Source: Acidimicrobiales bacterium (lineage in GTDB: Bacteria; Actinomycetota; Acidimicrobiia; Acidimicrobiales; SHLQ01). From it: 64,000 nt of DNA. The notes under the pieces are model-generated. The model was not told the DNA's origin, did no database searches, and saw only the letters and a list, made by a program, of their open reading frames with translations. A program made the translations under genes and the position numbers. Where the stretch lies: contig JAHDEJ010000009.1 in the NCBI GenBank assembly GCA_020628865.1, positions 80,039 through 144,038 on the forward strand, read 5' to 3'. Shown here in pieces: positions 10,058 through 40,380 of the stretch; positions within the stretch are counted from its first letter, which is position 1; each line of letters begins with the position of its first letter.

Positions 10058-10077
10058 GCCAGCAGCAGCACCGATCG

Positions 10078-11819: not shown

Positions 11820-11879
11820 GACCCCGGGCCCCGCTCCGAGCAGAGCGATGACCGGTCGTCGCGCCTAGGCTCGCGGTCC

Positions 11880-12899: not shown

Positions 12900-13666
12900 C
12901 TGCACCAGAGGTAGAGCAGAGCCTGGTCGATCTTGCCGTCGAACTGGCCACCGGTGCGGGAGCATTGACCCGCAAGTGGTTCGACCGCGGACCGGTCGAC
13001 TTCGACACGAAGGCCGACGGGTCCCCCGTGACCGAAGCCGACAAGGCCGCCGAGCGGTACCTGCGTGAGCAGATCACGTTGGCGTTCCCCACCGACGCAA
13101 TCGTCGGCGAGGAAGAAGAACGCCGTGAAGGCACGAGCGGCCGGACGTGGATCATCGATCCCATCGACGGCACCAAGTCCTTCACCCACGGTGTGCCCCT
13201 CTACGGCACCCTCCTGGCTGTTCGGGACGAACACGGCCCGGCCGTCGGCGTGATCGTGATGCCGGCCCTCGACGAGGTCGTCGCCGCCGGGCGAGGCCTC
13301 GGCTGCACCCACAACGGGCGAGCCTGCTCGGTCAGTGAACGCACCGAATTCGAAGGTGCCTACGCCATGACGAGCGGCTTCGACTACTGGCCCGAGCCGA
13401 GCGAAGTGGATCGCTTCATCAACAGCGGACTCGTGACCCGCACGTGGGGCGATGCCTACGGCTATGTGCTTCTGGCCACCGGGCGCACCGACGTGATGGT
13501 CGACCCGCTGGTGAACGTCTGGGACGTCGCCCCGATGCAGGTGATCATCCCCGAAGCCGGCGGTCGGGTGACCGATCAGGCCGGCAACGAATGGGAAGAC
13601 GGCAAGCACTTCCTGGCCAGCAACGGCCACGTGCACGACGCCCTCATCGACGCCGTCTTCGCCTGA
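12896..13666 (+). CDS. inositol monophosphatase family protein (possibly histidinol-phosphatase HisN)
   Basis: Carries the motifs IVGEEEE, WIIDPIDGTKSF and WDVAPMQVIIPEAGG. A GTGA overlap couples it to the upstream gene. Confidence 0.8.
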   Translation: MTAPEVEQSLVDLAVELATGAGALTRKWFDRGPVDFDTKADGSPVTEADKAAERYLREQITLAFPTDAIVGEEEERREGTSGRTWIIDPIDGTKSFTHGVPLYGTLLAVRDEHGPAVGVIVMPALDEVVAAGRGLGCTHNGRACSVSERTEFEGAYAMTSGFDYWPEPSEVDRFINSGLVTRTWGDAYGYVLLATGRTDVMVDPLVNVWDVAPMQVIIPEAGGRVTDQAGNEWEDGKHFLASNGHVHDALIDAVFA

Positions 13667-17155: not shown

Positions 17156-17229
<74 letters not shown>

Positions 17230-22654: not shown

Positions 22655-25198
<2,544 letters not shown>

Positions 25199-25255
25199 GT
25201 GAACCTCCTCTGAGCACTTCGCCGCCCCGTCAGAGCAGCGAACTACACCGAAGTG

Positions 25256-25261
25256 ATTCTA
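25256..25261 (-). promoter_or_regulatory. -10 hexamer TAGAAT upstream of gyrA
   Basis: Minus strand reads GGTCAGGTAGAATCACTTC, about 58 nt upstream of the gyrA ATG. Confidence 0.3.
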
Positions 25262-25476
25262 CCTGACCACAGTGCCAGTCAGCCGTGTGGGGGCGGCACG
25301 GACACCGCCATCACCAGATTCCGTGGACGTCCCGGATTCCTCACCCGATGGCCGAAGACATGGTCGGAATCGGACAACCGATGGTCAGGACCGGACACCG
25401 GTCGAAGTCGAACGGGTCGCCACCCCTACAGTGAGCGCCCCATGCGGACGGTCCGGCATTCGTCGAGGAAAGCGAG

Positions 25477-26349
25477 GTGAGCATGGGAGTGGCCCACGGA
25501 GATGAACGGCCGATCGAGATCGAGTTCGCACCTCAAGGCAAGCCCGGGCTTCCGGTGGAAGTCCTGCGTCGCTCCGCACTCGTCGCACGGATGGCCAGCA
25601 GGGAGATCGCGACACGTCAGCGCGTCGGATTCCATCAACTGCTGCTCTGCACGCAGGGAGCCGGCACCCACATGGTCGACTTCGAGCCGGTCGTCTTCGA
25701 GCCGGGCACGATGGTGCGCATCCACCCCGGCCAGGTGCAACGGTTCCTCCCCCACGAAGGCTTCGATGCCCGAATGGTGGTCTGGCCGCCCGAATCCCAC
25801 CACGCCGACCCGACGGCGGCCGCCTGGTACCCCGGTTCGTCCGCACCAACGAGGTGGCAGTTGGATGCCCGCCTCCAGCAGCACGTGAATGAATGGATCG
25901 ACGGCCTCGAGGCCGAGCAGAGGCGGTTCAAGAACACCCCAATCCACCGCAGTCTGATGCAGTCGATGTTGTGTTCGATGCTGATGCGTTTGGCGATCGA
26001 ACTTCCCGACGCCTCCCCGACCGGCACGCGACTGCCACAGGCCTATCTCGACTTCCGGCAGATCATCGAGACTTCGCTCTACGAACGGCCAACGGTCGTG
26101 TCGCTCGCCCACGAGCTCGGATACAGCACCCGCACACTCGATCGGGCCTGTCAGCAGGCCTCCGGTCGAACGGCCCGGGACATCCTCGATGACCGGTTGA
26201 CGCTCGAGGTTCGCCGCCTGCTCACCCACACGGATCGACCGTTCGCCCGGATCGGCGCCGAGCTGGGATTCACCGACCCGTCCAACTTCTCGAAGTTCGT
26301 GAAGCGAAATCTCGGTCAGGTGCCGACGGAGATTCGATCACAGAGCTGA
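25477..26349 (+). CDS. AraC family transcriptional regulator (cupin-like N-domain)
   Basis: The C-terminal double HTH is visible (VVSLAHELGYSTRTLDRACQQASGRTARDIL..IGAELGFTDPSNFSKFVKRNLG). It is a paralog of the regulator at 38067-38900. Confidence 0.9.
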   Translation: MSMGVAHGDERPIEIEFAPQGKPGLPVEVLRRSALVARMASREIATRQRVGFHQLLLCTQGAGTHMVDFEPVVFEPGTMVRIHPGQVQRFLPHEGFDARMVVWPPESHHADPTAAAWYPGSSAPTRWQLDARLQQHVNEWIDGLEAEQRRFKNTPIHRSLMQSMLCSMLMRLAIELPDASPTGTRLPQAYLDFRQIIETSLYERPTVVSLAHELGYSTRTLDRACQQASGRTARDILDDRLTLEVRRLLTHTDRPFARIGAELGFTDPSNFSKFVKRNLGQVPTEIRSQS

Positions 26350-26351
26350 TG

Positions 26352-27113
26352 TCAGCGGAAGTGACTCTTGGGTCGGACCTGGAGCTCACCGTCGATCGTC
26401 AGGTCCACGGCCTCGTTGTAGAAGCACACCATGCCGGCGATCGGCATGACCTCGGGCCGCGGCAACGTGTAGGTCCAGGCGATGTCTCGATGCACCTGAT
26501 CGTTGATCAGCGCTGAGAAGAAGTTGGCGTCGCCCTTGTACGGGCATGACCCCTGCGTCGCCGTTGGTGACAGGAGGTCGAGGCGGACGTCGGTCTTCGG
26601 GAGGTAGTACCGGGCGGGAGCGCCGGTCTCGAAGAGCACGGTCGGGTTCTTGGAGTTGGCCACCTCGACCCCATCGAGTTCGACGACGACGTGCCGGGAG
26701 GAAGCGAGTGCGTCCACGCGGGTGTAGGGGCTCCGAGGGTGGACGTACACCTCGATGTTCTCTTCGAACCAGTGATCGAGCGCATCGAAGTCGATGGCGA
26801 AGTGACCTCCGAGTTCGGGATGACCGGGGTACGTGCGGGCCACATGCGGGAGGAGTCCGGCATCGGTCAACAGGTCGTATCGCAGCGCCCCGTCGGGGAG
26901 GTCGGCGACGACGGAGTCCGCAGCCGCAATGAGCTCGCCGTTGATGTGGTCCCGGGGGAAGAACCACCACGGCCAGTACGGCACCTCCCACACAAAGAGG
27001 AACTGCCGGGAGTCCACGATCGTCTGTCCCTGGTACAGGCCTCGGATCCACTTGTCGCCGGGGACGACCTGCGGAGTGCCGACCGGCGTGGTCGACGGAT
27101 CATCCATTTCCAT
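26352..27113 (-). CDS. tandem DUF427 domain protein
   Basis: Two DUF427-like halves (KWIRGLYQGQTIVDSRQFLFVWE..YWPWWFFP and VVVELDGVEVANS..RYYLPKTDV..GSCPYKGDANFFS..WTYTLP). The ATG at 27113 was chosen and lies 7 nt after the upstream stop. Confidence 0.7.
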   Translation of the reverse strand: MEMDDPSTTPVGTPQVVPGDKWIRGLYQGQTIVDSRQFLFVWEVPYWPWWFFPRDHINGELIAAADSVVADLPDGALRYDLLTDAGLLPHVARTYPGHPELGGHFAIDFDALDHWFEENIEVYVHPRSPYTRVDALASSRHVVVELDGVEVANSKNPTVLFETGAPARYYLPKTDVRLDLLSPTATQGSCPYKGDANFFSALINDQVHRDIAWTYTLPRPEVMPIAGMVCFYNEAVDLTIDGELQVRPKSHFR

Positions 27114-27120
27114 CGTCGAT

Positions 27121-29049
27121 TCAGACGAGCGCGGCGTCGGCAACGATGTCGACGAGCGCGGGCCCGTCGTGGGCCAGTGCGGCGCTGAGGGCGCCTGCCA
27201 GCTCGTCGGCGTTCGTGACTCGGAACCCACGGGCACCGCAGTTCTCCGCAAAGGATGCGAAGTTCGGGTTGTGCAGGCTCGTCTGCCACACGTCGAGATC
27301 GGCGGAACGCTGTTCCTTCGAGATCTTGCCCAGCTCGCCGTTGTCGACCAGCACGTGGGTGATGTTCATGCCGTACTTCACGGCCGTGGTCAGTTCCATG
27401 GCGTACTGCCCAAACCCACCGTCACCCGACATGCTGACGATCTGCCGGCCCGTGTTGGCAGCCCAGGCGCCCATCGCGGCCGGGAACCCGAAGCCGATGC
27501 TGCCGAGGTAGCCGGACATGAGCACCGTATGTCGGTCAACTTCGAAGTATCGGCCGAAGCTGTACGTGTTGTTCCCCACGTCGACGGCGATCACCGCATC
27601 GGGGTCGAGTGCCTCCGTCAACTCGGCGAAGATCCGGGCAGACGCCAGGCCCTGTCCGCGATCGTCATCGGCGCGAGACGACTTCTCCGTCCGCCAGATG
27701 CTCCAACGGTCGGCGACCTCCTCGCGTCGGTCCGTCGCGGCAACTGTCGACAGCGACCGATCGAGCGCTTCCGCGACCACGCCGACGTGCCCGAGCACAC
27801 CCACGGTGACCGGATGGAATCGGCCGAGAGCCATCGGATCGTGGTCCACCTGAATGATCGGCTTGTACGGCGAGATTCCCGTGTGGTTCGCGAACGAGGC
27901 GCCGAACGCCACGATGAGATCGCTCTCGTTCATGAACCAGCTGGCGATCGGTGTGCCCGATCGGCCGAGCACACCACAACCAAGCGGATGGTGATCGCTG
28001 ATCTGCCCCTTGCCCTTGAAGGTCGTGGCGACGGGGGCTCCCAGGCGTTCCGCCAGGGCGATGATCGGTTCCATGTCGTGCCGGGCACCCGCACCGACGA
28101 TGATCAACGGCCGCTCAGCGGATCCGAGGAGCTCAGCCGCCGCATCGAGCGTCTCGGCGGGAGGTGGCGAGGTTCGCACCCACGTGCGGCCTTCCGGGCC
28201 GGACGCCGGCTCGTCACTCGGCTGGATCTGGACCTCGTCCGGGAAGATCAGGTGGGTGACATCGGATTCGACGAGCGCGGTCTTGCACGCCAGATTCATC
28301 AGCTCGGTGTGGTTGGAACCGGCGTGGACGGTCTGGCTCGTTCGAGCAACGTCGCCAAACGCGGCCTGGAGGTCGAGGTCCTGGAATGCGCCGCGGCCCA
28401 TGTTCGCCGACGGGACCTGGCCGGACAGCGCCAGCACCGGGGCCCGATCGACCTTCGCGTCGTAGAGGCCAGTGAGCAGATTGGTCGAACCCGGCCCGGC
28501 GATGCCGAAGCACGCGGCGGGACGACCGGTGAGCTTGCCGTAGCCCGAGGCCGCGAACGCGGCGGCACCCTCGTGCCGGACACCGAAGTACTGCAGGTCG
28601 CCGCGCTTCTGCGCCTGGCGTAGTGCATCGCCGAATCCGAGGTTGGAATGGCCGACGATGCCGAAGACCGCATCCACGCCCCACGCCGTCATCGTCTCGA
28701 CCAGCGCATCGGAGACGGTTCGGACCCGTGGCGGTTCCGTCGGCAGCGTGACATAGACGCCGTCCTCGCGAACCTCGACCGGGTAGCAGGCCGGCGCGTC
28801 ATCGAACGGTGGTGGTGGTGTGCCCGTCGTCGGGTCATAGTCGTACCCATGCCACGGACAACGCAGCTTGCCGTTCTCGATCGAGCCCTCGCCGAGCGGT
28901 CCGCCCTGATGGGGGCAGTGGTTGTCGAGACAACCGTAGGTTCCCTCGTGGTTGGTGACCGCAAGCGTGTGGTGGCCCACGGTGACCGTGGTGACGCGAC
29001 CCTCGTCAAGCTCGCCGTGGTCGAGAATCTTGTGGATGGACTCGCTCAT
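27121..29049 (-). CDS. Rieske [2Fe-2S] domain fused to a thiamine-pyrophosphate-dependent enzyme (acetolactate synthase / pyruvate oxidase-like)
   Basis: N-terminus CPHQGGPLGEGSIENGKLRCPWHG is the canonical CXH-X16-CXXH motif. It is followed by three-domain TPP enzyme motifs (AVFGIVGHSNLGF; GPGSTNLLTGLYDA; MSGDGGFGQYAMEL). An ATGA overlap couples it to the upstream gene. Confidence 0.8.
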   Translation of the reverse strand: MSESIHKILDHGELDEGRVTTVTVGHHTLAVTNHEGTYGCLDNHCPHQGGPLGEGSIENGKLRCPWHGYDYDPTTGTPPPPFDDAPACYPVEVREDGVYVTLPTEPPRVRTVSDALVETMTAWGVDAVFGIVGHSNLGFGDALRQAQKRGDLQYFGVRHEGAAAFAASGYGKLTGRPAACFGIAGPGSTNLLTGLYDAKVDRAPVLALSGQVPSANMGRGAFQDLDLQAAFGDVARTSQTVHAGSNHTELMNLACKTALVESDVTHLIFPDEVQIQPSDEPASGPEGRTWVRTSPPPAETLDAAAELLGSAERPLIIVGAGARHDMEPIIALAERLGAPVATTFKGKGQISDHHPLGCGVLGRSGTPIASWFMNESDLIVAFGASFANHTGISPYKPIIQVDHDPMALGRFHPVTVGVLGHVGVVAEALDRSLSTVAATDRREEVADRWSIWRTEKSSRADDDRGQGLASARIFAELTEALDPDAVIAVDVGNNTYSFGRYFEVDRHTVLMSGYLGSIGFGFPAAMGAWAANTGRQIVSMSGDGGFGQYAMELTTAVKYGMNITHVLVDNGELGKISKEQRSADLDVWQTSLHNPNFASFAENCGARGFRVTNADELAGALSAALAHDGPALVDIVADAALV

Positions 29050-30656
29050 GCGTGCACACCTCCGTAGGCGATGCCGGCCAGGTGGGCCATGTCCCGATCG
29101 AAGGTCGTGAGGTCATCGAGGCAGAAGTCCTGGAGGCTGGAGTGGCCGCAGGCCCGCGCCAGCACCTCCATCAACTCGACGGTGGCCTCGAAGAAGCGGG
29201 TGAGCCGCTGGGCTGCCTCGTCCACCACGAGGCGGGACCGAAGGTCCTGGCGTTGCGTGGCGATACCGACCGGGCAGTTGTCCGTGTTGCAGGCCCGCAT
29301 GCCGAGGCAGCCGATTGCCTGCAGGGCGGCGTTCGACACGGCGATGGCGTCTGCGCCGAGCGCAAGCGCCTTTGCAAAGTCGGTGTGGCTCCGCAACCCT
29401 CCGGTGATGACGAGGGTGATGTCCGTCCGACCGGTGGCGTCGAGATGTCGGCGAGCTCGAGCAAGTGCAGGAATCGTCGGAACCGAGATGTGATCGCGGA
29501 AGAGCGACGGTGCGGCACCGGTACCGCCGCCGCGGCCGTCGAGAATGACGTAATCCACGCCGATCCGCAGCGCCGCGTCGATGTCCTCCTCGATGCGCTG
29601 CGCCGAGAGCTTCGCCCCGATCGGGATTCCGCCGGATGCTTCACGCACCTGGTCGGCGAGTTCGCGGAACTCATCCTCGCTGGTGAGGTCCGGGAACGTG
29701 GGCGGCGAGATCGCATCCTGGCCTTCCGGTAGTCCACGCACCTCCGCAATCTTGCCGGTCACCTTGTGGCCCGGCAGATGCCCACCGGTGCCGGTCTTCG
29801 CTCCCTGCCCGAACTTGAAGTGGAAGGCCTGCACGTTCCGAACCTTCTCGAGGTCCCAGCCGAAGCGACCGGACGCCAGCTCGTAGAAGTAACGATCGTT
29901 CTCTGCGTGCTCCTCGGGAAGCATGCCGCCCTCACCCGAGCAGATACCCGTACCGGCGGCGTTCGCTCCTCGGGACAGCGCAACCTTCGCCTCTTCTGAC
30001 AGGGCGCCGTAGGACATGTCGGACACGAACAGCGGGATGTCGAGCTCGAGCGGCGCGGCGGCGTTCGGCCCGATCACGACGGAGGTCGCCACGTCGACGT
30101 CGTCGAGCAACGGTCGCTTGGCCAGCTGACCGGTCACGAACTGAATGTCGTCCCACTTCGGGAGCTGATTCCGAGGGACGCCCATGGCCGTGGTCGGGCC
30201 GTGGTGTCCGAGCTTCGAGAGTCCCTCGGCCGCCAGCTGCCGAATCAACGCCACGTGGGGCTCGTCATCGGTGCCGTGCAGATCCTGATAGGCGCCTTGG
30301 TACGCATCGCGGTCGTAGGGCTGCGGGTTGTCCTTCTCCCAGGCGAGGATCTCGTCGAGGTCGACGAAGAGATCGCCATCCTCGAGCCACGACGAGAACT
30401 TTGTGAGGCGTTCGGCGTTGTTGTAGCTCGACACTCCGGTGCGGAAGCCGTAGTCCCATCCGTGCACACCACAGATCAGGTTCTCGCCGTCGACGCGACC
30501 GTCGGCCATCATCGCGCCGCGATGCAGACAGCGGCCGTAGAGAACGGAGTGATTGTCGTCGAAGCGGACGATGACGAGATCGACGTTGGACACGAGTGCG
30601 CCCACCGGTGTGCGATCTTCGACGTCGGCCCAGGTTGCGATCTTGTGTGGTTGCAC
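29046..30656 (-). CDS. Rieske [2Fe-2S] domain fused to a glutamate-synthase-like FMN oxidoreductase (GltB domain-2 / COG0069 type)
   Basis: N-terminus CLHRGAMMADGRVDGENLICGVHGW is CXH-X16-CXXH. It is followed by LFVSDMSYGALSEEAKVALSRGANAAGTGICSGEGG, GAKTGTGGHLPG and DGRGGGTGAAP, typical of glutamate synthase-related FMN proteins. Confidence 0.8.
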   Translation of the reverse strand: MQPHKIATWADVEDRTPVGALVSNVDLVIVRFDDNHSVLYGRCLHRGAMMADGRVDGENLICGVHGWDYGFRTGVSSYNNAERLTKFSSWLEDGDLFVDLDEILAWEKDNPQPYDRDAYQGAYQDLHGTDDEPHVALIRQLAAEGLSKLGHHGPTTAMGVPRNQLPKWDDIQFVTGQLAKRPLLDDVDVATSVVIGPNAAAPLELDIPLFVSDMSYGALSEEAKVALSRGANAAGTGICSGEGGMLPEEHAENDRYFYELASGRFGWDLEKVRNVQAFHFKFGQGAKTGTGGHLPGHKVTGKIAEVRGLPEGQDAISPPTFPDLTSEDEFRELADQVREASGGIPIGAKLSAQRIEEDIDAALRIGVDYVILDGRGGGTGAAPSLFRDHISVPTIPALARARRHLDATGRTDITLVITGGLRSHTDFAKALALGADAIAVSNAALQAIGCLGMRACNTDNCPVGIATQRQDLRSRLVVDEAAQRLTRFFEATVELMEVLARACGHSSLQDFCLDDLTTFDRDMAHLAGIAYGGVHA

Positions 30657-30842
30657 GCGGCGGAGTCCCTCCCGGGAGTTGCGAAGAAACCGCCAGTCTT
30701 CGATCGGCCGAGTCGGTTGTCACGGTCAGGAGACGACAAACGTTGGTCGGAACCCGACGACTTCGCGGTCGGACGAAAGTCGACGCTCGGTGCCCCCGTA
30801 CGTTGGCCTCACCGCCACTTCGAGGAGACGCAGGATCGAGCC

Positions 30843-31616
30843 ATGAGCGACCAAACGGATCAGCGAAACGCCCCACCGGCCACGAGCTCGGAGAGGACGG
30901 TGGCCCGGTTGGTCAACGCGACCAAGAGATTCGGAGCCGGCGATGCGGCCGTCACGGCATTGAACGACGCCACCATCGAGTTCCGAAAGGGCGAGTTCAC
31001 CGCCGTGATGGGACCGAGCGGTTCCGGCAAGTCGACCCTCATGTACTGCCAGTCCGGACTCGACCGGCTGACGAGCGGCCACGCCTACATCGGCGATGTG
31101 GATGTGTCCACGCTGTCCGACCAGGAACTATCCGTCATGCGTCGGTCCACCCTCGGATTCATCTTCCAGTCCTTCCATCTGGTGCCGGCACTCACGTCGC
31201 GCGAGAACATCACCCTTCCGGTCGACCTCAACGCAGACGCCGAGGTCGACGAAGCATTCCTGAACGAGCTGGCAGTTGTCCTGGGCATCGAACATCGACT
31301 CGAGAACCTGCCCAGCCAACTCTCTGGCGGGCAGCGCCAGCGGGTGGCCGTCGCCCGAGCAATGATTCCCCGACCGGAGGTGATCTTCGCCGACGAGCCG
31401 ACAGGCGCCCTGGATTCGAAGACGTCCGGTGAACTCCTTGCCTATCTGCGAACGGCGGTGGACGACCTGGGTCAGACCATCGTGATGGTCACCCACGACG
31501 CCGTGGCGGCCAGCCACTGCGATCGAGTCGTCTACGTCCAGGACGGCGTGCTGGTCGACGAGGGACGCAATCCCACGGTCGACGACGTCCTCGGCAAGAT
31601 CCGTGAGCTCAGCTGA
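30843..31616 (+). CDS. ABC transporter ATP-binding protein (MacB/LolD type)
   Basis: The ATG at 30843 was chosen inside ORF 30201..31616. Walker [11 protein letters not shown], signature [14 protein letters not shown] and Walker [13 protein letters not shown] are present. Confidence 0.9.
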
Positions 31617-34134
31617 CATGATTCGTCGAACACTGAAGCTCGCCTGGTTCAAACGCAACCGCTACGCACTCACGGTCGTCGCGATCGCCCTGTCCGTTGC
31701 GTTCATCGTCTCGACCTTGTTGCTGACCACCTCGATTTCCGACGTCGGTGAACCGCTGCGCTCCGCCTACGACAATGTCGATGTCGTGGTCACCGGGCCC
31801 GAGGTTGCCGGGGGCGATGGGCCCGTGCAGGCAATTTCTGCTCCCGTGCCGGAAGCGGTCGTGGCCGACCTGACGCGGGCGGGCCAGATGGCTGTCGGAT
31901 TCGCCGACCCCTACGCGCAAGTGCTCACCGCCGAAGGGCAGGCGGGTGGACAAGACCAGGCGGCTGCGAACGTTGCCGAGCCCTGGTTGGGTGGCTCGCC
32001 GCTCAATGGCTTTGCCATTGTTGAAGGCGCCACGCCCGAGACCGTCGGCGAGGCCGTCCTCGACGTGTCGACGGCGAACGCTGCGTCACTCGACGTTGGC
32101 TCGACCATCAACTTCGTGACGGATCTCGGTGTACAGGAGGCGACCCTCGTCGGGCTCGCGACCTTTGGTGGCGCAGACAACGACCCGTACACGTCGACCA
32201 TTCTCCTCTCACCGGAGCACCAGATCTTTGGGTCGGGTGATGGCTTCCAACGCGTGCTCGTGGCCGACGCCAGCGTGGCCGACGTTGCGGCGATGGCCCC
32301 CGGCATGGAGATCCAGTCCGGATCCGATTGGGTCCAGTCCCAACAGGACGCACTCAACGACTTCCTCGGGTTCTTCAGCACCTTCCTCACCGTGTTCGCT
32401 GTCGTCGCCGTGGTGGTCGGCATGGTCATCGTCACCAACACCTTCACCGTGTCGCTGTCGCAGCGCACCCAGGAGCTTGCGCTCCTCCGGCTTGTGGGGA
32501 CGACTCGTCGGCAGTTGCTTTCGCAGGTGGTTCTCGAGGCCGTACTGCTCGGCGCCGTCGGTACGGGGATCGGGCTCCTGCTCGGATTGGCGGGAGTTTC
32601 GGTGCTGGGATGGTTTCTCGACGTGCTCGGCCTGGTGATCGAACGATCGAGCGAGACCTCTCCGACAGCGCTTGCGATCGGCGTGATCGTCGGTCTGGGT
32701 GTCACCGTCGTGGCATCGGTTCGACCCGCCTGGAAGTCCACCGAGGTCGCCCCAATCGAAGCGCTCCGCTCCTCGGAGGTCGACCTGGTGGACGGTGGTG
32801 GTCGTCGACGCTTCATGACGGCCGCGACGCTCGCCATCGGTCTCGCATCGCTTGCGTGGGGCATCGCCCAGAGCGACATCCTGTTCACCGGAGTCGCCAT
32901 TGGGGCGATCTTCCTCGCTCTCTACCTCGGGGCTGATTCGTTGGTCCGTGTTGCTGCCCGAATGACGCGACCGATTCTCGGTCGGGCCGGCCCGACGGGC
33001 ACGATTGCCAGCCGCAATCTGGAGAAGAACGCGGGCCGCACTGCTGCTGCAGCGAGCGCCCTGATGATCGGCATCGCGCTGATTGGGTTCTTCACGCTCA
33101 TGGCCGCGACGATCGGTCAGTTCATCGCCGGCGATGCCGGCGAAGCGTTGGAGACGGACCTCGTGGTCCAGGGCATCGGCAGCCAACCGGAGCCGGCATT
33201 GAGCGACGCAGTGTTGGAACAGATCGTCGGTGTTGATGGTGTCGACGTCCTCGTGCCGCTCTATCAGACGTCGGTCAGCCCAGCCGGTGACGTGGAGTTC
33301 GAACGTGCCGGTCCGGGCGGTGGCAGTGGCCTGGGGGTGGCCTTGACCGATGTCGAGGCGCTCGACGCTGCCTACACCTTTGTGTTGAACGCCGGCTCGC
33401 TCGACGACGTCGGCGGGTCGAGCGTCGTCATTGATCAGGCGACTGCGGATGGGTTCACGCTCTCGGTCGGCGATTCACTCACCGTCACCTCGCTCGCCGG
33501 ACCAGTGGACCTGGGGATCGCAGCGATCATCGAGACTTCGCTTCCCGGCTCGCCCCAACCGGCGATCATCGGAGACCTCACGTTGCGGGCCGCGCTCGGA
33601 TACGGGGATCCGGCCACTGCGGCGTACATCGTCGGCCCCGCACTCGCCAGCGAGGTCAACGATGCGATCGATCTCCCCACGGTCGAGGTCGTCTCTCGCA
33701 CCGACTACATCGACGGTTTGAGCTCCAACCTCGACACGATTCTGGCGCTGGTCTACGCGCTGCTGGCGGTGGCGGTTCTCGTGGCCCTCATCGGCATTGC
33801 GAACACCGTCTCGTTGGCGATCTCCGAGCGGGTCGGCGAGATTGCTGCCACCCGGGCGGCTGGAGCTTCCAGCCGGCAGATCTTCTGGTCGCTGCTGGCC
33901 GAGTTCGGGCTGTTGGCCATCGTGGGCATCGTGTCGGGGCTCGTGTTCGCCTGGATCGCCGCGGCTTCGCTCTTCAACGCGCTCTCTGGCGGGCAGATCG
34001 GCACGCCCGAGGTCGACGTGCTCACGGCACTGCTGATCGTCGCCGCCGGACTCGGCGGGGCATTGATCGCCAGCTGGTTCCCAGCCAGATCGGCGGCCAC
34101 CACCGACATTCTCGACGTGCTTCGCGCTGATTGA
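31603..34134 (+). CDS. ABC transporter permease with two FtsX/MacB-type domains
   Basis: 843 aa. Two blocks of four TM helices are each preceded by a large extracytoplasmic domain. The RTQELALLRLVGTTRRQL and RVGEIAATRAAGASSRQI linker motifs are present. Confidence 0.85.
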   Translation: MSSADMIRRTLKLAWFKRNRYALTVVAIALSVAFIVSTLLLTTSISDVGEPLRSAYDNVDVVVTGPEVAGGDGPVQAISAPVPEAVVADLTRAGQMAVGFADPYAQVLTAEGQAGGQDQAAANVAEPWLGGSPLNGFAIVEGATPETVGEAVLDVSTANAASLDVGSTINFVTDLGVQEATLVGLATFGGADNDPYTSTILLSPEHQIFGSGDGFQRVLVADASVADVAAMAPGMEIQSGSDWVQSQQDALNDFLGFFSTFLTVFAVVAVVVGMVIVTNTFTVSLSQRTQELALLRLVGTTRRQLLSQVVLEAVLLGAVGTGIGLLLGLAGVSVLGWFLDVLGLVIERSSETSPTALAIGVIVGLGVTVVASVRPAWKSTEVAPIEALRSSEVDLVDGGGRRRFMTAATLAIGLASLAWGIAQSDILFTGVAIGAIFLALYLGADSLVRVAARMTRPILGRAGPTGTIASRNLEKNAGRTAAAASALMIGIALIGFFTLMAATIGQFIAGDAGEALETDLVVQGIGSQPEPALSDAVLEQIVGVDGVDVLVPLYQTSVSPAGDVEFERAGPGGGSGLGVALTDVEALDAAYTFVLNAGSLDDVGGSSVVIDQATADGFTLSVGDSLTVTSLAGPVDLGIAAIIETSLPGSPQPAIIGDLTLRAALGYGDPATAAYIVGPALASEVNDAIDLPTVEVVSRTDYIDGLSSNLDTILALVYALLAVAVLVALIGIANTVSLAISERVGEIAATRAAGASSRQIFWSLLAEFGLLAIVGIVSGLVFAWIAAASLFNALSGGQIGTPEVDVLTALLIVAAGLGGALIASWFPARSAATTDILDVLRAD

Positions 34135-34146
34135 TCCAAAAGAGTC

Positions 34147-34179
34147 GGAGGGGGCGGAGCCATTTGGCCCGCCCCCTCC
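34147..34179. terminator. bidirectional terminator hairpin
   Basis: GGAGGGGGCGG (34147-34157) pairs with CCGCCCCCTCC (34169-34179) in an 11-bp stem between convergent genes. A second small hairpin CCTCC-GATT-GGAGG follows. Confidence 0.65.
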
Positions 34180-34200
34180 GGTACGCCTCCGATTGGAGGA

Positions 34201-34578
34201 TCAGACGGTCGCTGCGCTGCGCTGCATGAGTGCGGCTCGGGCGCAGATTCCCAGGCACACGATCTCGATGAGCATGATGACGAAGAACGCCACGTTGAAC
34301 TCGACGATCACATCGCTGAGCTCACGACAGATGGCCCCGGCGAACGCGGCGGCATAGCCCGCGGCGTGCCGCATGGCGACCGCCACGAGCATTGCGATGC
34401 CGAGGCCCATGTTGCGGCCGGCCCACGACGTGGCGAGATCGTCCGCGCCGGCAACGAAGTTGACTGCCGAGGTCGGGTCGGCGAGCGCCGAGATGCCGAT
34501 GACCGTGCCGCCGACGCCCATGAGGATGGCGAAGGCGGTGATGGCGATGTGGACGCCCTCAGCTTTGATGACGTTCAT
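34201..34578 (-). CDS. small integral membrane protein, unknown function
   Basis: The ATG at 34578 is preceded by GGGAGA. The 125-aa product has about 4 hydrophobic helices (HIAITAFAILMGVGGTVIGI..; FFVIMLIEIVCLGI). Confidence 0.55.
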   Translation of the reverse strand: MNVIKAEGVHIAITAFAILMGVGGTVIGISALADPTSAVNFVAGADDLATSWAGRNMGLGIAMLVAVAMRHAAGYAAAFAGAICRELSDVIVEFNVAFFVIMLIEIVCLGICARAALMQRSAATV

Positions 34579-34723
34579 GTGGAGTCTCCCCTGTGAGATC
34601 TGGCCGTCTGGCCAGGCGAAGGGCAGTCTCCAGCCGAGCGGCTCGAGCGTCGAGGTCATGATTCGACCCGCGCTGGTGAAGATCAGACAGATCTGCCGCA
34701 GCTACGGGTGAAGAGGAAGGGGT

Positions 34724-36667
34724 TCAGATGTCCAGGAAGCGAACGTCTTTGGCGTTCGTCTGGATGAAGTGCTTGCGGCGGCCGACGTCCTCGCCCATGA
34801 GCGTGCTGAACACTTCGTCGGCAATGGCGGCCTGATCGACCGAGACCTGGAGGAGCGTGCGGTCCCCCGGGTTCATGGTCGTCTCGGCAAGCTCCTGCCA
34901 CTGCATTTCGCCCAAGCCCTTCAGGCGCTGGAAGTCCTTCTTGTGCTTGGGGTTCTCCTCCATGAACTGATCCTTTTCACGATCGTCCTTGAGGTACAAC
35001 TTTTCCTTGCCCACCGTCGTGGAATACAGCGGCGGCTGCGCGATGTAGATGTGGTTGTTCTCCACCAGCTCACGCATCTGCCGGAAGAAGAAGGTGAGCA
35101 GCAGGGTGCGGATGTGGCTGCCGTCCACATCGGCGTCCGCCAGCAGGATGATCTTGTGGTAGCGGATCTTGGTGATGTCGAACTCTTCGGCGATGCCGGC
35201 GCCGATCGCCTGAGCGAGGGTCTGGACTTCCTGGTTCTTCAGCATCTTGTCGATGCGGGCGCGTTCGACGTTGAGGATCTTGCCGCGGATCGGGAGAATC
35301 GCCATCGTGCGGGGATCGCGGGCCTGGATGGCCGAGCCACCGGCGGAGTCGCCCTCCACGATGAACAGCTCGCGTTCGCGCGGGTCCTTCGAGGAGCAGT
35401 CCTTGAGCTTCTCCGGCATGCCGGCGCCATCGAGCGCCGTCTTGTTGCGAATGGTGTCTCGAGCGGCGCGAGCGGCTTCACGGGCCCGCTGAGCGGCAAT
35501 GGCCTTGTTGATGATGAGCTTGCCCTCGGCCGGGTTCTCCTCGAGCCACTCGGCCAGCTTGTCGTTGGTGGCCTTCTCGACCATGGAACGAACGGACACG
35601 TTGCCGAGCTTGTCCTTGGTCTGCCCTTCGAACTGCGGGTCCTGCAGGCGCACGGAGATGATGGCAGTGAGACCTTCGCGGACATCGTCGCCCGACAGCG
35701 ACTCGGTTTCCTTGAGGAGGTTCTTTGCCTGGCCGTAGTTGTTGATCGTTCGGGTGAGGGCGGACCGGAAGCCGGTCTCGTGCATGCCGCCGCCACCGGT
35801 GGTGATGCCGTTGGCGAAGCTGTGGAGGCCATCGGCATTGAAGCCGGTGTTCCACTGGAAGGCGATCTCGACCTCCTGCGTCTCCTCCGCCACCTCGTAG
35901 TAGCCGACCTTGCTGAAGAGGGCTTCCTTCGACTGGTTCACGTGGCGAACGAAGTCGATGATGCCGCCCTCGTAGTGGAACTCGATCCAGCCGTCTTCGT
36001 CGGCGTCCTCATGGGGCTCATCGCGGCGGAGATCCTGGAACCGGATCTTCAGGCCGCGGTTCAGGAACGCCATCATCTGGAAGCGGTCGAGCAGGGTCTG
36101 GGCCCGGAAGTCCGTCTCCTCGAAGATGGTGTCGTCCGGCCAGAAACGGACGGTCGTGCCCGTGCGTCCGTCCGGCGCTTCGCCCCGAACCTCGAGCTTG
36201 GTTTGGACGTTGCCGCCGTCGGCGAAGTCCATGTAGTGGTGGTCGCCCTGGCGGTCGATCTGGACCTCGACCCGCTTCGACAGTGCGTTCACGACCGAGA
36301 TGCCCACGCCGTGCAGGCCGCCGGACACCTTGTAGCCACCGCCACCGAACTTGCCACCGGCGTGCAGCACGGTCATGACGACCTCGGCCGCCGACATGCC
36401 CTCGTACTTCGGGTGTTCGCCGGTGGGGATGCCGCGACCGTCGTCTCGGACCTCGGCGGAACCGTCGGGATGGATGACGACCTCGATGGCCGAGCAGAAA
36501 CCGGCCATGGCTTCGTCGACCGAGTTGTCGACGACTTCGTAGACGAGGTGGTGCAGACCCTGTGGGCCGGTGGACCCGATGTACATGCCCGGGCGCTTTC
36601 GAACCGCCTCGAGGCCCTCAAGAACGGTGATGTTCTCCGCGCTGTAAGACTCCGGTGAATCAGCCAC
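34724..36667 (-). CDS. gyrB: DNA gyrase subunit B
   Basis: VLEGLEAVRKRPGMYIGSTG, HHLVYEVVDNSVDEAMAG, GGLHGVG, EGDSAGGSA and PIRGKILNVE are present. The GTG at 36667 (VADSPESYSAENI) has a GGAAGGGG Shine-Dalgarno 8 nt upstream. The longer ORF extension is Arg-rich junk. Confidence 0.97.
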   Translation of the reverse strand: MADSPESYSAENITVLEGLEAVRKRPGMYIGSTGPQGLHHLVYEVVDNSVDEAMAGFCSAIEVVIHPDGSAEVRDDGRGIPTGEHPKYEGMSAAEVVMTVLHAGGKFGGGGYKVSGGLHGVGISVVNALSKRVEVQIDRQGDHHYMDFADGGNVQTKLEVRGEAPDGRTGTTVRFWPDDTIFEETDFRAQTLLDRFQMMAFLNRGLKIRFQDLRRDEPHEDADEDGWIEFHYEGGIIDFVRHVNQSKEALFSKVGYYEVAEETQEVEIAFQWNTGFNADGLHSFANGITTGGGGMHETGFRSALTRTINNYGQAKNLLKETESLSGDDVREGLTAIISVRLQDPQFEGQTKDKLGNVSVRSMVEKATNDKLAEWLEENPAEGKLIINKAIAAQRAREAARAARDTIRNKTALDGAGMPEKLKDCSSKDPRERELFIVEGDSAGGSAIQARDPRTMAILPIRGKILNVERARIDKMLKNQEVQTLAQAIGAGIAEEFDITKIRYHKIILLADADVDGSHIRTLLLTFFFRQMRELVENNHIYIAQPPLYSTTVGKEKLYLKDDREKDQFMEENPKHKKDFQRLKGLGEMQWQELAETTMNPGDRTLLQVSVDQAAIADEVFSTLMGEDVGRRKHFIQTNAKDVRFLDI

Positions 36668-36705
36668 GAGACATACCCCTTCCGTCGAGAAATTACGACC
36701 TTGTA

Positions 36706-36711
36706 AGTCTA
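36706..36711 (-). promoter_or_regulatory. -10-like hexamer TAGACT upstream of gyrB
   Basis: Minus strand reads CTGGTAGACTTACAAGG, about 39 nt upstream of the GTG start. Confidence 0.25.
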
Positions 36712-36758
36712 CCAGAGCAGGGGTGACATCCGGCTCCTCCCGCCCATTTGGCCACCGG

Positions 36759-36767
36759 TTGTCCACA
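36759..36767. promoter_or_regulatory. DnaA-box-like 9-mer TTGTCCACA
   Basis: Exact match to the actinobacterial DnaA-box form TTGTCCACA. It lies next to the AT-rich palindrome CTTGATTTTTCAAG (36777-36790) in the gyrB upstream region. Confidence 0.4.
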
Positions 36768-36972
36768 GGCGATTTTTCTTGATTTTTCAAGCAAACGGAC
36801 AGGTGGCTCTGTCGATCGATTGCGAAGCTCGTGTCGTGACGGCAGGGCGGATCCTGATGGTTCCGACGGCGACGGCGCCGTGCATCTGCCCGGCGCGTCC
36901 GGTCAGGTCGGGTCCAGTGCAATAGGCCGAGGATCGGGACGGCTCACCGACGGCTTGAGTGAGCCAGCGACA

Positions 36973-37626
36973 TCAACGCCGAAGTACGACCAGCGTCTCG
37001 CGGAGCTCGGTCAGGCCGCGCTCTCGCATGGGCGCAGCCTTCTCGATCACGGACACGTCCTCGAGCGCGGTGAGCTCGTACGCAGCGCGGAAGTGCGCTT
37101 CGATCTCGGCGCGCGGCACCGAGTGCGGCGGCCCGGCCATCTCGGACTGGTCGTACTCGAAGGCCACGAGGAAGATCGGTGCTGCCGGCGGAAGGTTGGA
37201 CAGCAGATGGTTTGCGAATCGTTCCCGCATGTCGGGCGGGAGCGCCACCATGCTTGCCCGGTCGTACACCGCATCCACGGTGGCCAGGTGCGAACTCGTC
37301 AGGTCGAAGAGATCGCCACACCAGAGCTCGTACGGGCCCGACGACGACACGGTGAACGAGTCGACCTTGCGAACGTCGGGCTCGAGTCCGACACCGGCGA
37401 AGAAGTCGGCGATGGCGATGGGGCTGAGCTCCACGCCGAGCACGCGATGGCCCTGCTCGGCCAACCACACCATGTCCACGCTCCTGCCACAGAGCGGAAC
37501 GAACACGGTGGCGGCTTCGGCAAGACCCAGCGCGCTCCAGTGGTCGTCGAGCCAGCGATGGGGCACCTGCTGGTCGAAGGCCGTCTGCCCCTGCTCCCAC
37601 CGTTCGTGCCAGAAGTCGGCGTCCAT
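36973..37626 (-). CDS. tpm: thiopurine S-methyltransferase family protein
   Basis: FWHERWEQGQTAFDQ, VFVPLCGRSVDMVWLAEQGHRVLGVELS and YDRASMVALPP closely follow the bacterial TPMT pattern. The ATG is at 37626. Confidence 0.85.
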   Translation of the reverse strand: MDADFWHERWEQGQTAFDQQVPHRWLDDHWSALGLAEAATVFVPLCGRSVDMVWLAEQGHRVLGVELSPIAIADFFAGVGLEPDVRKVDSFTVSSSGPYELWCGDLFDLTSSHLATVDAVYDRASMVALPPDMRERFANHLLSNLPPAAPIFLVAFEYDQSEMAGPPHSVPRAEIEAHFRAAYELTALEDVSVIEKAAPMRERGLTELRETLVVLRR

Positions 37627-37627
37627 C

Positions 37628-38002
37628 TCAGGCCCTTTCGTGGTTTCGGAGCCGGCGCAGCTCTCGATCGAGTGGTTTGCGAGCTCGTCGCTGACCACCT
37701 TCTTCTTCGATGCGGCGAGCCAACGACTCGAGTACGGCCGCCAGACGCTCCCGATCGGGTTCCCAACCGTTCTGGTCGCATTCGTTGGCCCAGGCCGACA
37801 CCGTACGATGCCCGCGGCGCCCGTTGCACCGCTTGCAGGCGGCCACCTCGTTCTCCAACCAGCTCGGCCCGCCCTTGACGCGTGGGATGACATGCTCCGT
37901 GGTCGCCTCCACGAGGCCGACGTCCACCGGTCGACGGCACCAGACACACGTTGGTTCGTCGCGTCGCAGGATCAGATCGAGACGTTCCCGACGGTTCAGC
38001 AT
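37628..38002 (-). CDS. small HNH endonuclease
   Basis: Carries CVWCRRP..TTEHVIPRVKGG..NEVAACKRCNGRRG. The stop abuts the TPMT start. An alternative ATG is at 38026. Confidence 0.75.
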   Translation of the reverse strand: MLNRRERLDLILRRDEPTCVWCRRPVDVGLVEATTEHVIPRVKGGPSWLENEVAACKRCNGRRGHRTVSAWANECDQNGWEPDRERLAAVLESLARRIEEEGGQRRARKPLDRELRRLRNHERA

Positions 38003-38066: not shown

Positions 38067-38900
38067 ATGGCCACCCGGAAGCGCAGCGACATTCCCGACG
38101 TTCCGTTCCGACCGCCCAAGGGACGCAACGTTGCGGTCGAGGTCATCGAGATGGGCGTGCTGGAGAAGCGGCGTCGACAGGTAGTGGACGACGGCGTGCC
38201 GGAACGTCTGACGTTCGAGTACCTCCTGCTCGTGTGGGGTGGCGCCGGTTGCCACATCGTCGACTTTCAGGAGATCGACCTCCGTCCGGGGCGGGTCGTG
38301 CGGGTTCGCCCCGGGCAGGTCCAGCAGTGGCAGGCCGCGAGCGCGTTGGACGCGGTCGCCATCATCGCCCGGGATGTGTCTGCGCAACGGTGGTTGGCCG
38401 GCGATCCCGCCTTCTGCGATCTGGACCCGAACCTGCTCGACGTCAGCCGACACCTCGTCGAGGCATTGGCGACGGTGCAGGATCGACCGAACGGGTCCCG
38501 ACTCGCCGCGCAGCTGTGGCAGTCGCTGGTTGACGTGTACGAGTTGGGCACCTCCGTTGATCGGCGTGATCTGCCGGAGCCATACGTCGCGTTCTGCGAA
38601 GCCATCGAGGCGAACCCCGGCGCATCGCACAACGTCGCCGACATCGTCGCCGGCCTGGCCTGGTCGGAGCGCACGATCCGGCGGGCATGTCTGGAGGTCA
38701 CCGGCCTCACTCCGAAACAACTCCTCAACCAGCGTCTGATGCTCGAAGCCAAACGGCTGCTGGCGCACACCGATCGATCCGCCGCCTCGATCGCGGCCGA
38801 ACTCCGCTTCTCGGAGGCGACCAACTTCCAGAAGTTCTTCCAGCGGCTGGCCGGCGTGAACCCGGGCGACTTTCGACGATCCGTTCGCGCCGTCGACTGA
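38067..38900 (+). CDS. AraC family transcriptional regulator (paralog of 25477-26349)
   Basis: The N-domain HIVDFQEIDLRPGRVVRVRPGQVQQW parallels HMVDFEPVVFEPGTMVRIHPGQVQRF in the other copy. C-terminal HTH IAAELRFSEATNFQKFFQRLAG. An alternative ATG is at 38049. Confidence 0.85.
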   Translation: MATRKRSDIPDVPFRPPKGRNVAVEVIEMGVLEKRRRQVVDDGVPERLTFEYLLLVWGGAGCHIVDFQEIDLRPGRVVRVRPGQVQQWQAASALDAVAIIARDVSAQRWLAGDPAFCDLDPNLLDVSRHLVEALATVQDRPNGSRLAAQLWQSLVDVYELGTSVDRRDLPEPYVAFCEAIEANPGASHNVADIVAGLAWSERTIRRACLEVTGLTPKQLLNQRLMLEAKRLLAHTDRSAASIAAELRFSEATNFQKFFQRLAGVNPGDFRRSVRAVD

Positions 38901-39255: not shown

Positions 39256-40380
39256 TCAGGTGGCGACAAGGTTGCCCTGCCCGAGTCGGATGGTGGCATC
39301 GGCGACAGCGCCGGGTGGAAGGTCGGTTGCCGAGGTGAGCAGGGTCTGTCCGCTCGGCAGCGCGGCGACCAGCGCCGCGGACCGGTCGTCGTCGAGTTCG
39401 CTGAAAACATCGTCGAGGATGAGGAGCGGCGCAACGCCGACGGTCGAGCGAACGAGTTCGTGCCCGGCGAGGCGCAAGGCCAGGGCGACGGATCGTTGCT
39501 CGCCCTGCGAGGCGTGCGTTCGGGCCGGCATGCCGTTGAGAAGGATCTCGACCTCGTCCCGATGAGGCCCGACCGTGCTGACGCCTCGGCGAACGTCGTC
39601 CTTGCGAGATGCCTCGAGCGCGGCGGCCATTCCCGTGTCGTCCCACGGTGCGACGTAGGCGAGAGAAACGTCGTGGTCGGTTCCGGCCACGGCCCGAAGC
39701 GCCGTGCGCACCAGCGGCGTGAGCTCCGCGATGACACCGTCACGAAGGGCGCACAGCTGATCGCCGATCTGGGCGAACTTCTGATCCCACACGTCGAGGG
39801 TGAAGGCGGCATCGGAGTTGAGCCGGCCGCCACAACCCTTGAGCAACGCGTTGCGTTGTTTGAGGACCTTCTCCATTTCCGCGCGGATCGCCTCGTTGCG
39901 AGGGTGGAGGCCGAGCAGCACGTGGTCGAGATAGGTGCGCCGTTCCCCTGGCGATCCCTTGACCAGTTCGAGGTCGTCGGGCGCGAACACGGTGACCGAC
40001 ATGACGCCGAGCAGGTCCTTGGTCCGCTGGACCTTCTGTCGGTTCATTTGGATGCGGGCGCGGCCGGTGCGAGGCAGTTCGGCCTCGAGGAGGAGCTCGC
40101 GGCCGTCGCTGCGGAGCTGTGCTCGGGCGATCGCGCGCTCGGCCCCGCGCTGGATGAGTGCGTCGGTCGGGGCGCCGCGGAACGACCGCATCGTGGCGAG
40201 CCAGGCGGTGGCTTCGACGATGTTGGTCTTGCCGGAACCGTTGGGCCCGACAATGGCCGTGACCCCGGGAGCAAATGTCATTTCGAAGCTGGAGTGCGAC
40301 CGAAATCCGCTGAGCCAGAGCTGTTCGAGGACGAGCGCAGAGCTGGCGGAGGCCGCGTCGACGGGCGGGGTGTCGGTCAC
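39256..40380 (-). CDS. recF: DNA replication and repair protein RecF
   Basis: LWLSGFRSH, Walker A GPNGSGKTNIVEA, SQGEQRSVALALRLA and Walker B LLILDDVFSELD are present. Confidence 0.95.
   Translation of the reverse strand: MTDTPPVDAASASSALVLEQLWLSGFRSHSSFEMTFAPGVTAIVGPNGSGKTNIVEATAWLATMRSFRGAPTDALIQRGAERAIARAQLRSDGRELLLEAELPRTGRARIQMNRQKVQRTKDLLGVMSVTVFAPDDLELVKGSPGERRTYLDHVLLGLHPRNEAIRAEMEKVLKQRNALLKGCGGRLNSDAAFTLDVWDQKFAQIGDQLCALRDGVIAELTPLVRTALRAVAGTDHDVSLAYVAPWDDTGMAAALEASRKDDVRRGVSTVGPHRDEVEILLNGMPARTHASQGEQRSVALALRLAGHELVRSTVGVAPLLILDDVFSELDDDRSAALVAALPSGQTLLTSATDLPPGAVADATIRLGQGNLVAT

Follow-up and report, generated by a model that had tools for sequence, protein, structure and literature searches.

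Rieske domains on a glutamate-synthase-like and a pyruvate-oxidase-like enzyme encoded side by side in an Acidimicrobiales bacterium

Why would two different enzymes, encoded by neighbouring genes, each carry a Rieske [2Fe-2S] domain of its own at the N-terminus? The question is raised by an operon of an Acidimicrobiales bacterium (assembly GCA_020628865.1, contig JAHDEJ010000009.1, positions 80,039-144,038 of the forward strand). This whole stretch of 64,000 nt is called the window here, and coordinates refer to it unless another locus is named. The operon consists of three co-directional genes, one of which encodes an enzyme with thiamine pyrophosphate (TPP) domains:

29046..30656, minus strand: Rieske-GltB-like protein, 536 aa, GTG start, with the Pfam domains Rieske and Glu_synthase
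27121..29049, minus strand: Rieske-TPP enzyme, 642 aa, with Pfam Rieske and POX/PoxB-like PYR, middle and PP domains
26352..27113, minus strand: tandem DUF427 (PF04248) protein, 253 aa, two Pfam stretches, 7 nt after the TPP gene

A first-pass annotation of this DNA had read a CLH-X16-CGVH motif in front of a glutamate-synthase-like flavin mononucleotide (FMN) domain in the first gene, CPH-X16-CPWH in front of a three-domain TPP enzyme in the second, an ATGA overlap between the two and a two-copy DUF427 protein 7 nt further on. The coordinates, both PF04248 stretches and the Pfam assignments (Rieske with Glu_synthase; Rieske with TPP_enzyme_N, _M and _C) agree with that description, to which we add a [3Fe-4S] motif in the first protein. 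From these features a self-contained redox pathway had been proposed, for example one in which oxidative decarboxylation is coupled to an amination or reduction step through a built-in electron relay. We favour a related but looser reading, namely that both proteins are iron-sulfur flavoenzymes with tethered Rieske ports, and that the TPP enzyme supplies electrons for imine reduction by the GltB-like enzyme. For this full chain we give a probability of roughly 0.42, and it should be taken as tentative.

Two Rieske-fused enzymes and their relatives

The domains and motifs on which the argument rests are the following:

30357..30644, minus strand: Rieske domain of the GltB-like protein, residues ~5-100 (PF00355; ligands C43, H45, C62, H65)
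29145..30077, minus strand: FMN/synthase domain, residues 194-504 (PF01645)
29271..29309, minus strand: [3Fe-4S] motif C450-LGMRA-C456-NTDN-C461-P (C-x5-C-x4-C-P), from alignment to GltS
28750..29031, minus strand: Rieske domain of the TPP enzyme, residues ~7-100 (PF00355; ligands C45, H47, C64, H67)
27145..28719, minus strand: TPP enzyme core, with catalytic Glu160 (RHE), the Mg/TPP motif G542-D-G...N570 (GDG-x(26)-N) and K575

Judged by their sequences, the domains at both N-termini are genuine modules of the Rieske type, and their ligands are conserved. PF00355 matches residues 5-75 of the GltB-like protein with 44.2 bits (E 1.9e-11) and residues 7-77 of the TPP protein with 57.2 bits (E 1.6e-15), against a cut-off of 20.3, and in both NCBIfam and the PDB the domains are best matched by Rieske ferredoxins of dioxygenase systems. 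The motifs read CLH-x16-CGVH (CLHRG...ICGVHG) and CPH-x16-CPWH (CPHQG...RCPWHG), respectively, and the extra cysteine pair of the bc1-type, high-potential proteins is absent from both sequences, a lack that sets low-potential Rieske proteins apart from the bc1/b6f type. The four ligands are at least 98% conserved among 95 Rieske-GltB-like and 93 Rieske-TPP homologues from other loci, as are the three [3Fe-4S] cysteines in the former set and the catalytic Glu (RHE) and GDG...N motif in the latter. Two other readings of these domains were considered and dropped. The pair does not look like a recent duplication, the two domains being only 24% identical to each other, and neither protein is the alpha subunit of a Rieske non-haem iron oxygenase, since the C-terminal parts are Glu_synthase or TPP domains and the mononuclear-iron catalytic domain is lacking.

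Behind its Rieske domain, the GltB-like protein is matched by Glu_synthase over residues 194-504 (E 4e-91). In alignments to 1EA0 and 1LLW, C450, C456 and C461 fall on C1102, C1108 and C1113 of Azospirillum GltS, and E242, Q284, K287 and R307 on E903, Q969, K972 and R992 of the ferredoxin-type glutamate synthase (Fd-GltS) of Synechocystis; H293 stands in place of Fd-GltS Q978. The Rieske ligands, the [3Fe-4S] cysteines and the E/Q/K/R set are invariant in an alignment of 33 homologues (A4), and the E/Q/K/R set too is at least 98% conserved in the larger set of 95. The PDB matches span only GltS residues ~855-1197, and no amidotransferase, central or GXGXG domain exceeds the Pfam threshold in the protein, which has 536 residues against ~1500. 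By sequence, then, the protein resembles the synthase domain of Fd-GltS, and by its architecture it is not a glutamate synthase. An assignment as MgsC, subunit C of N-methylglutamate synthase, was rejected: it appears as a single JGI label (P0074), with no NCBIfam match and no adjacent GATase or GXGXG genes.

In the second protein a short Pro-rich linker (residues 101-110) joins the Rieske domain to a complete TPP core, made up of TPP_enzyme_N (111-228), TPP_enzyme_M (301-429) and TPP_enzyme_C (490-635). The AlphaFold2 (AF2) model is confident throughout, Rieske domain and linker included (pLDDT 92.7, pTM 0.89). The best PDB sequence relatives of the core are PoxB (3EY9) and the pyruvate oxidase POX of L. 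plantarum, and the closest folds found with Foldseek are AHAS, PoxB, POX and the PQO of C. glutamicum. These matches cover the 540-residue core only, and no PDB entry covers more. The nearest relatives in sequence and fold are enzymes that bind flavin adenine dinucleotide (FAD), in which the FAD-contact residues vary even among genuine members. The alignment stops at PoxB residue 527 of 572 and the query is only five residues longer, leaving no room for the C-terminal lipid-binding and activation segment of PoxB. By sequence and by fold, the nearest kin of the core are thus PoxB, POX and PQO, all oxidative decarboxylases that depend on FAD, which fits the oxidative decarboxylation proposed in the first-pass annotation.

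Is the Rieske domain the only carrier found at this position? The TPP protein was searched against 1.84 billion representatives, and when representatives are clustered at 50% identity, the Rieske-TPP clade comes down to three clusters of full length. Next in line are relatives with 38-47% identity, which have a rubredoxin at the N-terminus. This rubredoxin-TPP family, the sister group of the Rieske-TPP clade, is large (P0127, P0131, P0138 and P0148; loci L163-L168), and one cluster, P0310, alone holds 714 member sequences; at L163 a separate 45-aa rubredoxin gene lies just upstream of the fused one. E160, D543, N570 and K575 are invariant in both clades. So are E579, Q580 and W588, which together with K575 resemble a clade signature. 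On a single contig, a protein of 873 aa (P0122; L169 8001-10622) combines Fer4_19, two zf-CDGSH domains and a Rieske domain with the TPP enzyme, and going by its domain content it would string four electron-carrying centres, like a wire, onto the scaffold of a pyruvate oxidase. The GltB-like family has its own variant, a paralogue at L174 (3-1175, minus strand) that matches residues 129-406 of the window protein with 70% identity and has two CDGSH [2Fe-2S] motifs replacing the Rieske domain. Its neighbours encode a flavin reductase of the FAD_binding_9/SIP type, SnoaL, a metallo-beta-lactamase, an AraC protein, a tandem DUF427 protein, a cytochrome b (Ni_hydr_CYTB) and a patatin. Swaps of the carrier at the same position in both families are what would be expected of tethered one-electron ports, and the built-in electron relay gains support from them.

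Neither fusion is rare. Full-length Rieske-TPP proteins occur in at least 595 species genomes from several phyla, and the Rieske-GltB-like fusion was confirmed in at least 574 metagenome stretches; its architecture is common to all of the best 120 database clusters, with homologues at 76-98% identity. The best 80 relatives of the Rieske-TPP protein (62-84% identity) include members of the Acidimicrobiia, Acidobacteriota, Gemmatimonadota and Myxococcota, as well as Gammaproteobacteria (Ca. Thiodiazotropha), sponge symbionts and one cyanobacterium. Both fusions are therefore common in sequence databases and unusual among characterised enzymes. They are deposited under generic names ('glutamate synthase-related protein', 'Rieske 2Fe-2S domain-containing protein', 'thiamine pyrophosphate-binding protein', 'pyruvate oxidase'), and a full-text literature search found no study of either fusion or of rubredoxin-POX fusions, and no function for DUF427 or DUF5996.

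How often do the two genes travel together? We counted a locus as informative if the pair was present, or absent despite room on both sides. Centred on the TPP gene, 18 of 61 informative loci hold the GltB-like gene and 43 do not (30% linked); centred on the GltB-like gene, 21 of 45 hold the TPP gene and 24 do not (47%). The commonest arrangement is GltB-like followed by TPP, often with a 4-nt overlap, although the reverse order (L047, L068) and divergent pairs (L041, L063) also occur. Adjacent pairs were found in Acidimicrobiia, Acidobacteriota, Myxococcota and Gammaproteobacteria, one of them in the complete genome of Acidobacteria bacterium Mor1 (CP011806.1). Linkage across phyla, whatever the gene order, points to a functional connection, but not to an obligate one. 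Co-conservation, which the first-pass annotation had named as a check, thus holds in part for the two Rieske fusions and does not generalise to DUF427, a lineage-specific companion discussed below.

Beyond the pair itself, no conserved third partner emerged: at about 70 Rieske-TPP loci the Pfam families of the direct neighbours are heterogeneous, and none occurs in more than three loci. A marine subclade has a module of its own, in which genes for an ECF sigma factor and a zf-HC2 anti-sigma factor are followed by a Na+/H+ exchanger gene with a 4-nt overlap to the Rieske-GltB-like gene, then by DUF5996, Rieske-TPP and DUF1622 genes and, further on, a glutaredoxin/GST_N gene. Of 80 metagenome loci, at least 15 have the exchanger gene (PF00999) directly next to that of the Rieske-GltB-like protein (among them L100, L102, L103, L111, L119, L126, L139, L143, L147, L171, L172 and L001), mostly upstream and co-directional, with a cluster median spacing equal to a 4-nt overlap. 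These loci often carry the ECF sigma and zf-HC2 genes, with DUF5996 between the GltB-like and TPP genes.

Two further observations concern single loci. A Peripla_BP_6 (LivJ-like) gene lies directly downstream of the TPP enzyme at L002 (11670-12995; Rieske-TPP) and at L167 (8827-9942) and L168 (2514-3629), both of which have the rubredoxin-fused enzyme and carry the same Peripla_BP_6 protein (P0271). Possibly this neighbour is a substrate hint, or it is a coincidence. Moreover, the Rieske-TPP gene of L058 and the Rieske-GltB-like gene of L176 (P0008) come from records that are both 49,885 bp long. The two loci do not overlap; if they belong to the same contig, the genes would lie ~18 kb apart, and one genome would hold the pair without adjacency.

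Proposed electron flow within and between the enzymes

How could electrons move through such a pair? In the reading we prefer, each enzyme would use its own tethered, low-potential Rieske-ferredoxin domain as a one-electron port. The TPP enzyme would be an oxidative 2-oxoacid decarboxylase of the PoxB/POX type that has lost the membrane- and quinone-coupling tail of PoxB, and its electrons would most likely pass from TPP to FAD and on to the [2Fe-2S] cluster of the N-terminal Rieske domain. The GltB-like protein would be the isolated synthase half of an Fd-type glutamate synthase, in which the fused Rieske domain replaces free ferredoxin and feeds the [3Fe-4S] cluster and then FMN. There, the 2-iminoacid that forms when a 2-oxoacid reacts with free ammonia would be reduced; free ammonia is the expected nitrogen source because the protein has no glutaminase domain. 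Encoded together, the TPP enzyme could serve as the reductant source of the GltB-like enzyme, and the two would form a redox couple able to run without pyridine nucleotides. The inferred elements of this scheme are that FAD is bound, which way the electrons flow, that they pass directly from one Rieske domain to the other, and which substrates are used; pyruvate on the one side and 2-oxoglutarate with NH3 on the other are default guesses only.

A number of observations weigh against this scheme. At the level of the single enzymes, neither protein reaches the score of the families that it resembles: the NCBIfam gltB equivalog gives 146 bits against a cut-off of 1047, and the pyruvate-oxidase equivalogs PRK08611, PRK09124 and TIGR02720 give 389, 312 and 295 bits against 742, 792 and 638. 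The AF2 model of the GltB-like protein is poor (pLDDT 65.9, with disordered cofactor loops and input homologues all more than 76% identical) and was not used. In HMMER alignments K575 (codon 27325-27327) occupies the position of POX Phe479 and PoxB Phe465, residues that we take to lie on the electron path from TPP to FAD; with an invariant Lys there, the internal path may differ. At the level of the pair, either gene is found with no partner nearby in 53-70% of the informative loci, and in none of three genomic contexts of rubredoxin-TPP genes is there a GltB-like gene beside them. A self-contained pathway, as first proposed, finds no support in this. TPP enzymes that stand alone, with either carrier, evidently use other acceptors, and coupling within the pair may be indirect. 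Nor is there any conserved substrate-specific neighbour, such as a transporter or aminotransferase, beside the genes. Finally, the Na+/H+ exchanger, the ECF sigma/anti-sigma pair and the glutaredoxin-like companions hint at a role in stress rather than in central nitrogen metabolism. It is chiefly these companions of the stress type, and the frequent solitary occurrence of each gene, that speak against a closed couple.

The same observations lead to the alternative that survives best, in which the two are functionally independent redox enzymes, merely co-regulated, for instance as a stress or redox-homeostasis module, with no electrons passing between them. Frequent solitary genes and a large, stand-alone rubredoxin-TPP family are what it would predict, and so is the marine arrangement, where the GltB-like gene is coupled to the exchanger gene and sits beside ECF sigma/zf-HC2, DUF5996, DUF1622 and glutaredoxin/GST_N genes, amid neighbours that are otherwise heterogeneous. 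What it explains less well is that adjacency has been kept in three arrangements and at least four phyla, as is typical of products that act together, and that 4-nt overlaps imply co-production. We consider it unlikely, if still to be reckoned with.

Alternatively, the pair might act in sequence on one catabolic route. The GltB-like enzyme would oxidise an amino acid or amine to a 2-iminoacid, which gives a 2-oxoacid and NH3; the TPP enzyme would decarboxylate the 2-oxoacid oxidatively, and both would donate through their Rieske domains to a shared external acceptor (the respiratory chain, a cytochrome or a soluble reductase). The translationally coupled order, GltB-like before TPP, suits such a sequence, as do the genes for DAO-family FAD oxidases that lie divergently beside the pair at L002 and L171; solitary members of both families would fit independent dehydrogenases with a general acceptor, and the alpha subunit of GltS is able to oxidise glutamate when offered artificial acceptors. 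On the other hand, GltS synthase sites are strongly biased to reduction, the residues for ammonia addition and imine reduction are kept in the GltB-like protein, the usual task of low-potential Rieske ferredoxins is to donate electrons, not to take them up, and no conserved acceptor gene adjoins the pair. We regard a catabolic sequence as rather improbable.

That the Rieske domains sense iron or redox state, or serve structure or oligomerisation, and so regulate a non-redox TPP carboligase or decarboxylase and an FMN enzyme seems very improbable. In favour of this reading, AHAS ranks among the top matches by fold, the FAD of AHAS and glyoxylate carboligase plays no part in redox chemistry, and Lys replaces the Phe relay residue of POX. 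Against it, such a role is hard to reconcile with carrier swaps in both families, the rubredoxin and CDGSH replacements and the stacking of Fer4_19, CDGSH and Rieske domains form the pattern of an electron-transfer chain rather than that of a dedicated sensor, no cluster ligand varies, and the motif of the GltS [3Fe-4S] entry cluster is kept.

What would electron supply from the TPP enzyme to the GltB-like enzyme mean? O2 or quinone is the known electron acceptor of POX-type TPP enzymes, and iron-sulfur-linked oxidative decarboxylation is regarded as the domain of the unrelated PFOR family. If the preferred reading is true, a large POX-like clade from several phyla, with interchangeable iron-sulfur carriers (Rieske, rubredoxin, CDGSH), would have a third electron exit besides O2 and quinone. 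A bolder version, which we regard as doubtful, is that the Rieske-, rubredoxin- and CDGSH-fused POX-like enzymes are an unrecognised class of flavin/TPP 2-oxoacid:iron-sulfur oxidoreductases, analogous to PFOR in function, and that in operons of this kind direct Rieske-to-Rieske transfer to a minimal, ammonia-dependent GltS-like enzyme yields an amino acid from two 2-oxoacids and NH3 with neither NAD(P)H nor free ferredoxin. A minimal GltS synthase domain with a tethered donor would moreover be a natural experiment on how little GltS imine reduction needs, and the recurrent pairing makes the hypothesis testable in vitro with two soluble proteins. Hundreds of species from the environment (Acidimicrobiia, Acidobacteriota, Myxococcota, and sponge and bivalve symbionts) carry the genes, under generic names only.

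The third gene, regulation and surroundings of the operon

Does the DUF427 gene belong to the system? PF04248 matches its product with 122.7 bits (E 5.7e-36; cut-off 22.1), and the sole PDB relative, 3DJM, is itself an uncharacterised DUF427 protein. DUF427 adopts a beta-tent fold (PMC4287342). Within 8 kb, a tandem DUF427 gene accompanies only 2 of 80 TPP loci and none of 80 GltB-like loci. Searching from the DUF427 side, the closest homologues (64-68% identity) directly follow Rieske-TPP at L173, and L175 repeats the whole three-gene operon, with identities of 84% for the GltB-like, 86% for the TPP and 66% for the tandem DUF427 protein. A tandem DUF427 gene directly after the TPP gene is found only among close relatives of the source organism. 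It is a real but lineage-specific third member of the operon, and probably an accessory one. A relationship to DUF5996 was considered and rejected, the two having no similarity, and an apparent literature match of DUF427 to glutamine riboswitches concerns DUF4278 in fact.

At the junction of the first two genes, a GGAGG Shine-Dalgarno sequence lies 9 nt upstream of the ATGA overlap, through which the Rieske-TPP gene is translationally coupled to the upstream Rieske-GltB-like gene. The DUF427 gene starts at ATG 27113, 7 nt past the TPP stop codon; the longer reading frame called mechanically (26352-27251) uses a TTG further upstream, inside the TPP gene, and is not a likely start. Two features flank the operon:

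30657..30843, no strand assigned: intergenic region between the operon and a divergent ABC-transporter ATPase gene; holds the ribosome-binding site of the first gene
25477..26349, plus strand: AraC-family regulator with AraC_binding and HTH_18 domains (Pfam), convergent with the operon, stop codons 2 nt apart

In the intergenic region, GGGAGGGA stands a few bases upstream of GTG 30656, the start of the GltB-like gene. The operon promoter presumably lies here as well. According to Pfam, the ABC_tran domain of the plus-strand open reading frame begins within 30657..30843, and the frame belongs to an ABC ATPase/FtsX permease pair that is divergent from the operon. A scan of 25100-31000 for sigma-70 promoters and terminators gave nothing exceeding the shuffled background, and at the gathering threshold Rfam detected only two tRNAs in the window (7472-7563, plus strand; 17156-17229, minus strand), with no riboswitch or other Rfam element near the operon. 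The AraC-family protein is a candidate local regulator. Homologues of it are encoded near Rieske-TPP or tandem DUF427 genes at L003 (56% identity), L174 (51%) and L020 (33%). A second AraC-family regulator of the window (38067-38900, plus strand), 32% identical to that of the operon, is flanked by genes for thiopurine S-methyltransferase (36973-37698) and RecF (39256-40380).

On a larger scale, the operon is flanked by gyrB (34724-36922, minus strand) and gyrA (22655-25198, minus strand), which lie 9.5 kb apart, with recF slightly beyond. The gap between the gyrase genes (25199-34723) is a variable islet. In the window this islet comprises the ABC/FtsX pair together with the three genes of the operon and the AraC gene. 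In the closest syntenic relative, L003 (gap at 4179-13130), the same position is taken by ABC/FtsX, MoaF-like, Rieske-TPP (84% identity), metallo-beta-lactamase, SnoaL and AraC genes, with neither a GltB-like nor a DUF427 gene. The window has a G+C content of ~66%, and the nearest relatives of its proteins are found in Acidimicrobiia and Ilumatobacter-like metagenome-assembled genomes. Other genes in it encode a circularly permuted ATP-grasp protein (1022-2449, minus strand), a DUF885 protein (40447-42108, minus strand), an 850-aa LuxR-type regulator (53629-56181, minus strand) and a 730-aa AAA_21/AAA_15 ATPase (58469-60661, plus strand). Readings of the locus as a defence system, a mobile element or an oxygenase were dropped, as no Pfam domains match them.

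Likeness to known systems

Which characterised systems come closest? The N-terminal domains are most like the Rieske ferredoxins of aromatic-ring dioxygenase systems, such as AndAb, HcaC and BphF, with which they share the CxH...CxxH ligands and the lack of bc1-type disulfide cysteines. Those proteins are soluble one-electron shuttles, whereas here the Rieske domain is fused to the enzyme that it serves; Pfam detects no oxygenase or ferredoxin-reductase gene in the operon.

For the TPP enzyme, PoxB, PQO and the POX of L. plantarum offer the same PYR/middle/PP fold, the catalytic Glu and the GDG...N motif at ~27-35% identity. By analogy, their chemistry would be expected of it too: a 2-oxoacid would be decarboxylated oxidatively, and a flavin would be the exit for the electrons. 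It differs from PoxB and POX in the added Rieske domain, the lack of the C-terminal membrane-binding segment and the Lys in place of Phe479/Phe465, and its predicted acceptor is a tethered iron-sulfur centre, where PoxB and POX use quinone or O2. With PFOR/OFOR the likeness is one of function only, in that TPP-dependent oxidative decarboxylation would release single electrons through a built-in iron-sulfur centre. PFOR has [4Fe-4S] clusters, uses CoA, contains no flavin and has an unrelated domain organisation, and no PFOR domain was detected by Pfam in the TPP enzyme, which belongs to the POX/ALS superfamily.

The GltB-like protein, finally, is best compared with Fd-GltS (GlsF). Both have the TIM-barrel FMN domain, the [3Fe-4S] cysteines and equivalents of E903, Q969, K972 and R992, and in both a one-electron iron-sulfur donor would feed the [3Fe-4S] cluster. 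The GltB-like protein corresponds to only ~340 of the ~1500 residues, has His for Q978 and does without the amidotransferase, central and GXGXG domains; any nitrogen would have to come from free ammonia, unless the substrate is other than 2-oxoglutarate. And while Fd-GltS depends on free ferredoxin, the donor in the GltB-like family is fused to the enzyme, as a Rieske domain here and as CDGSH motifs in the paralogue.

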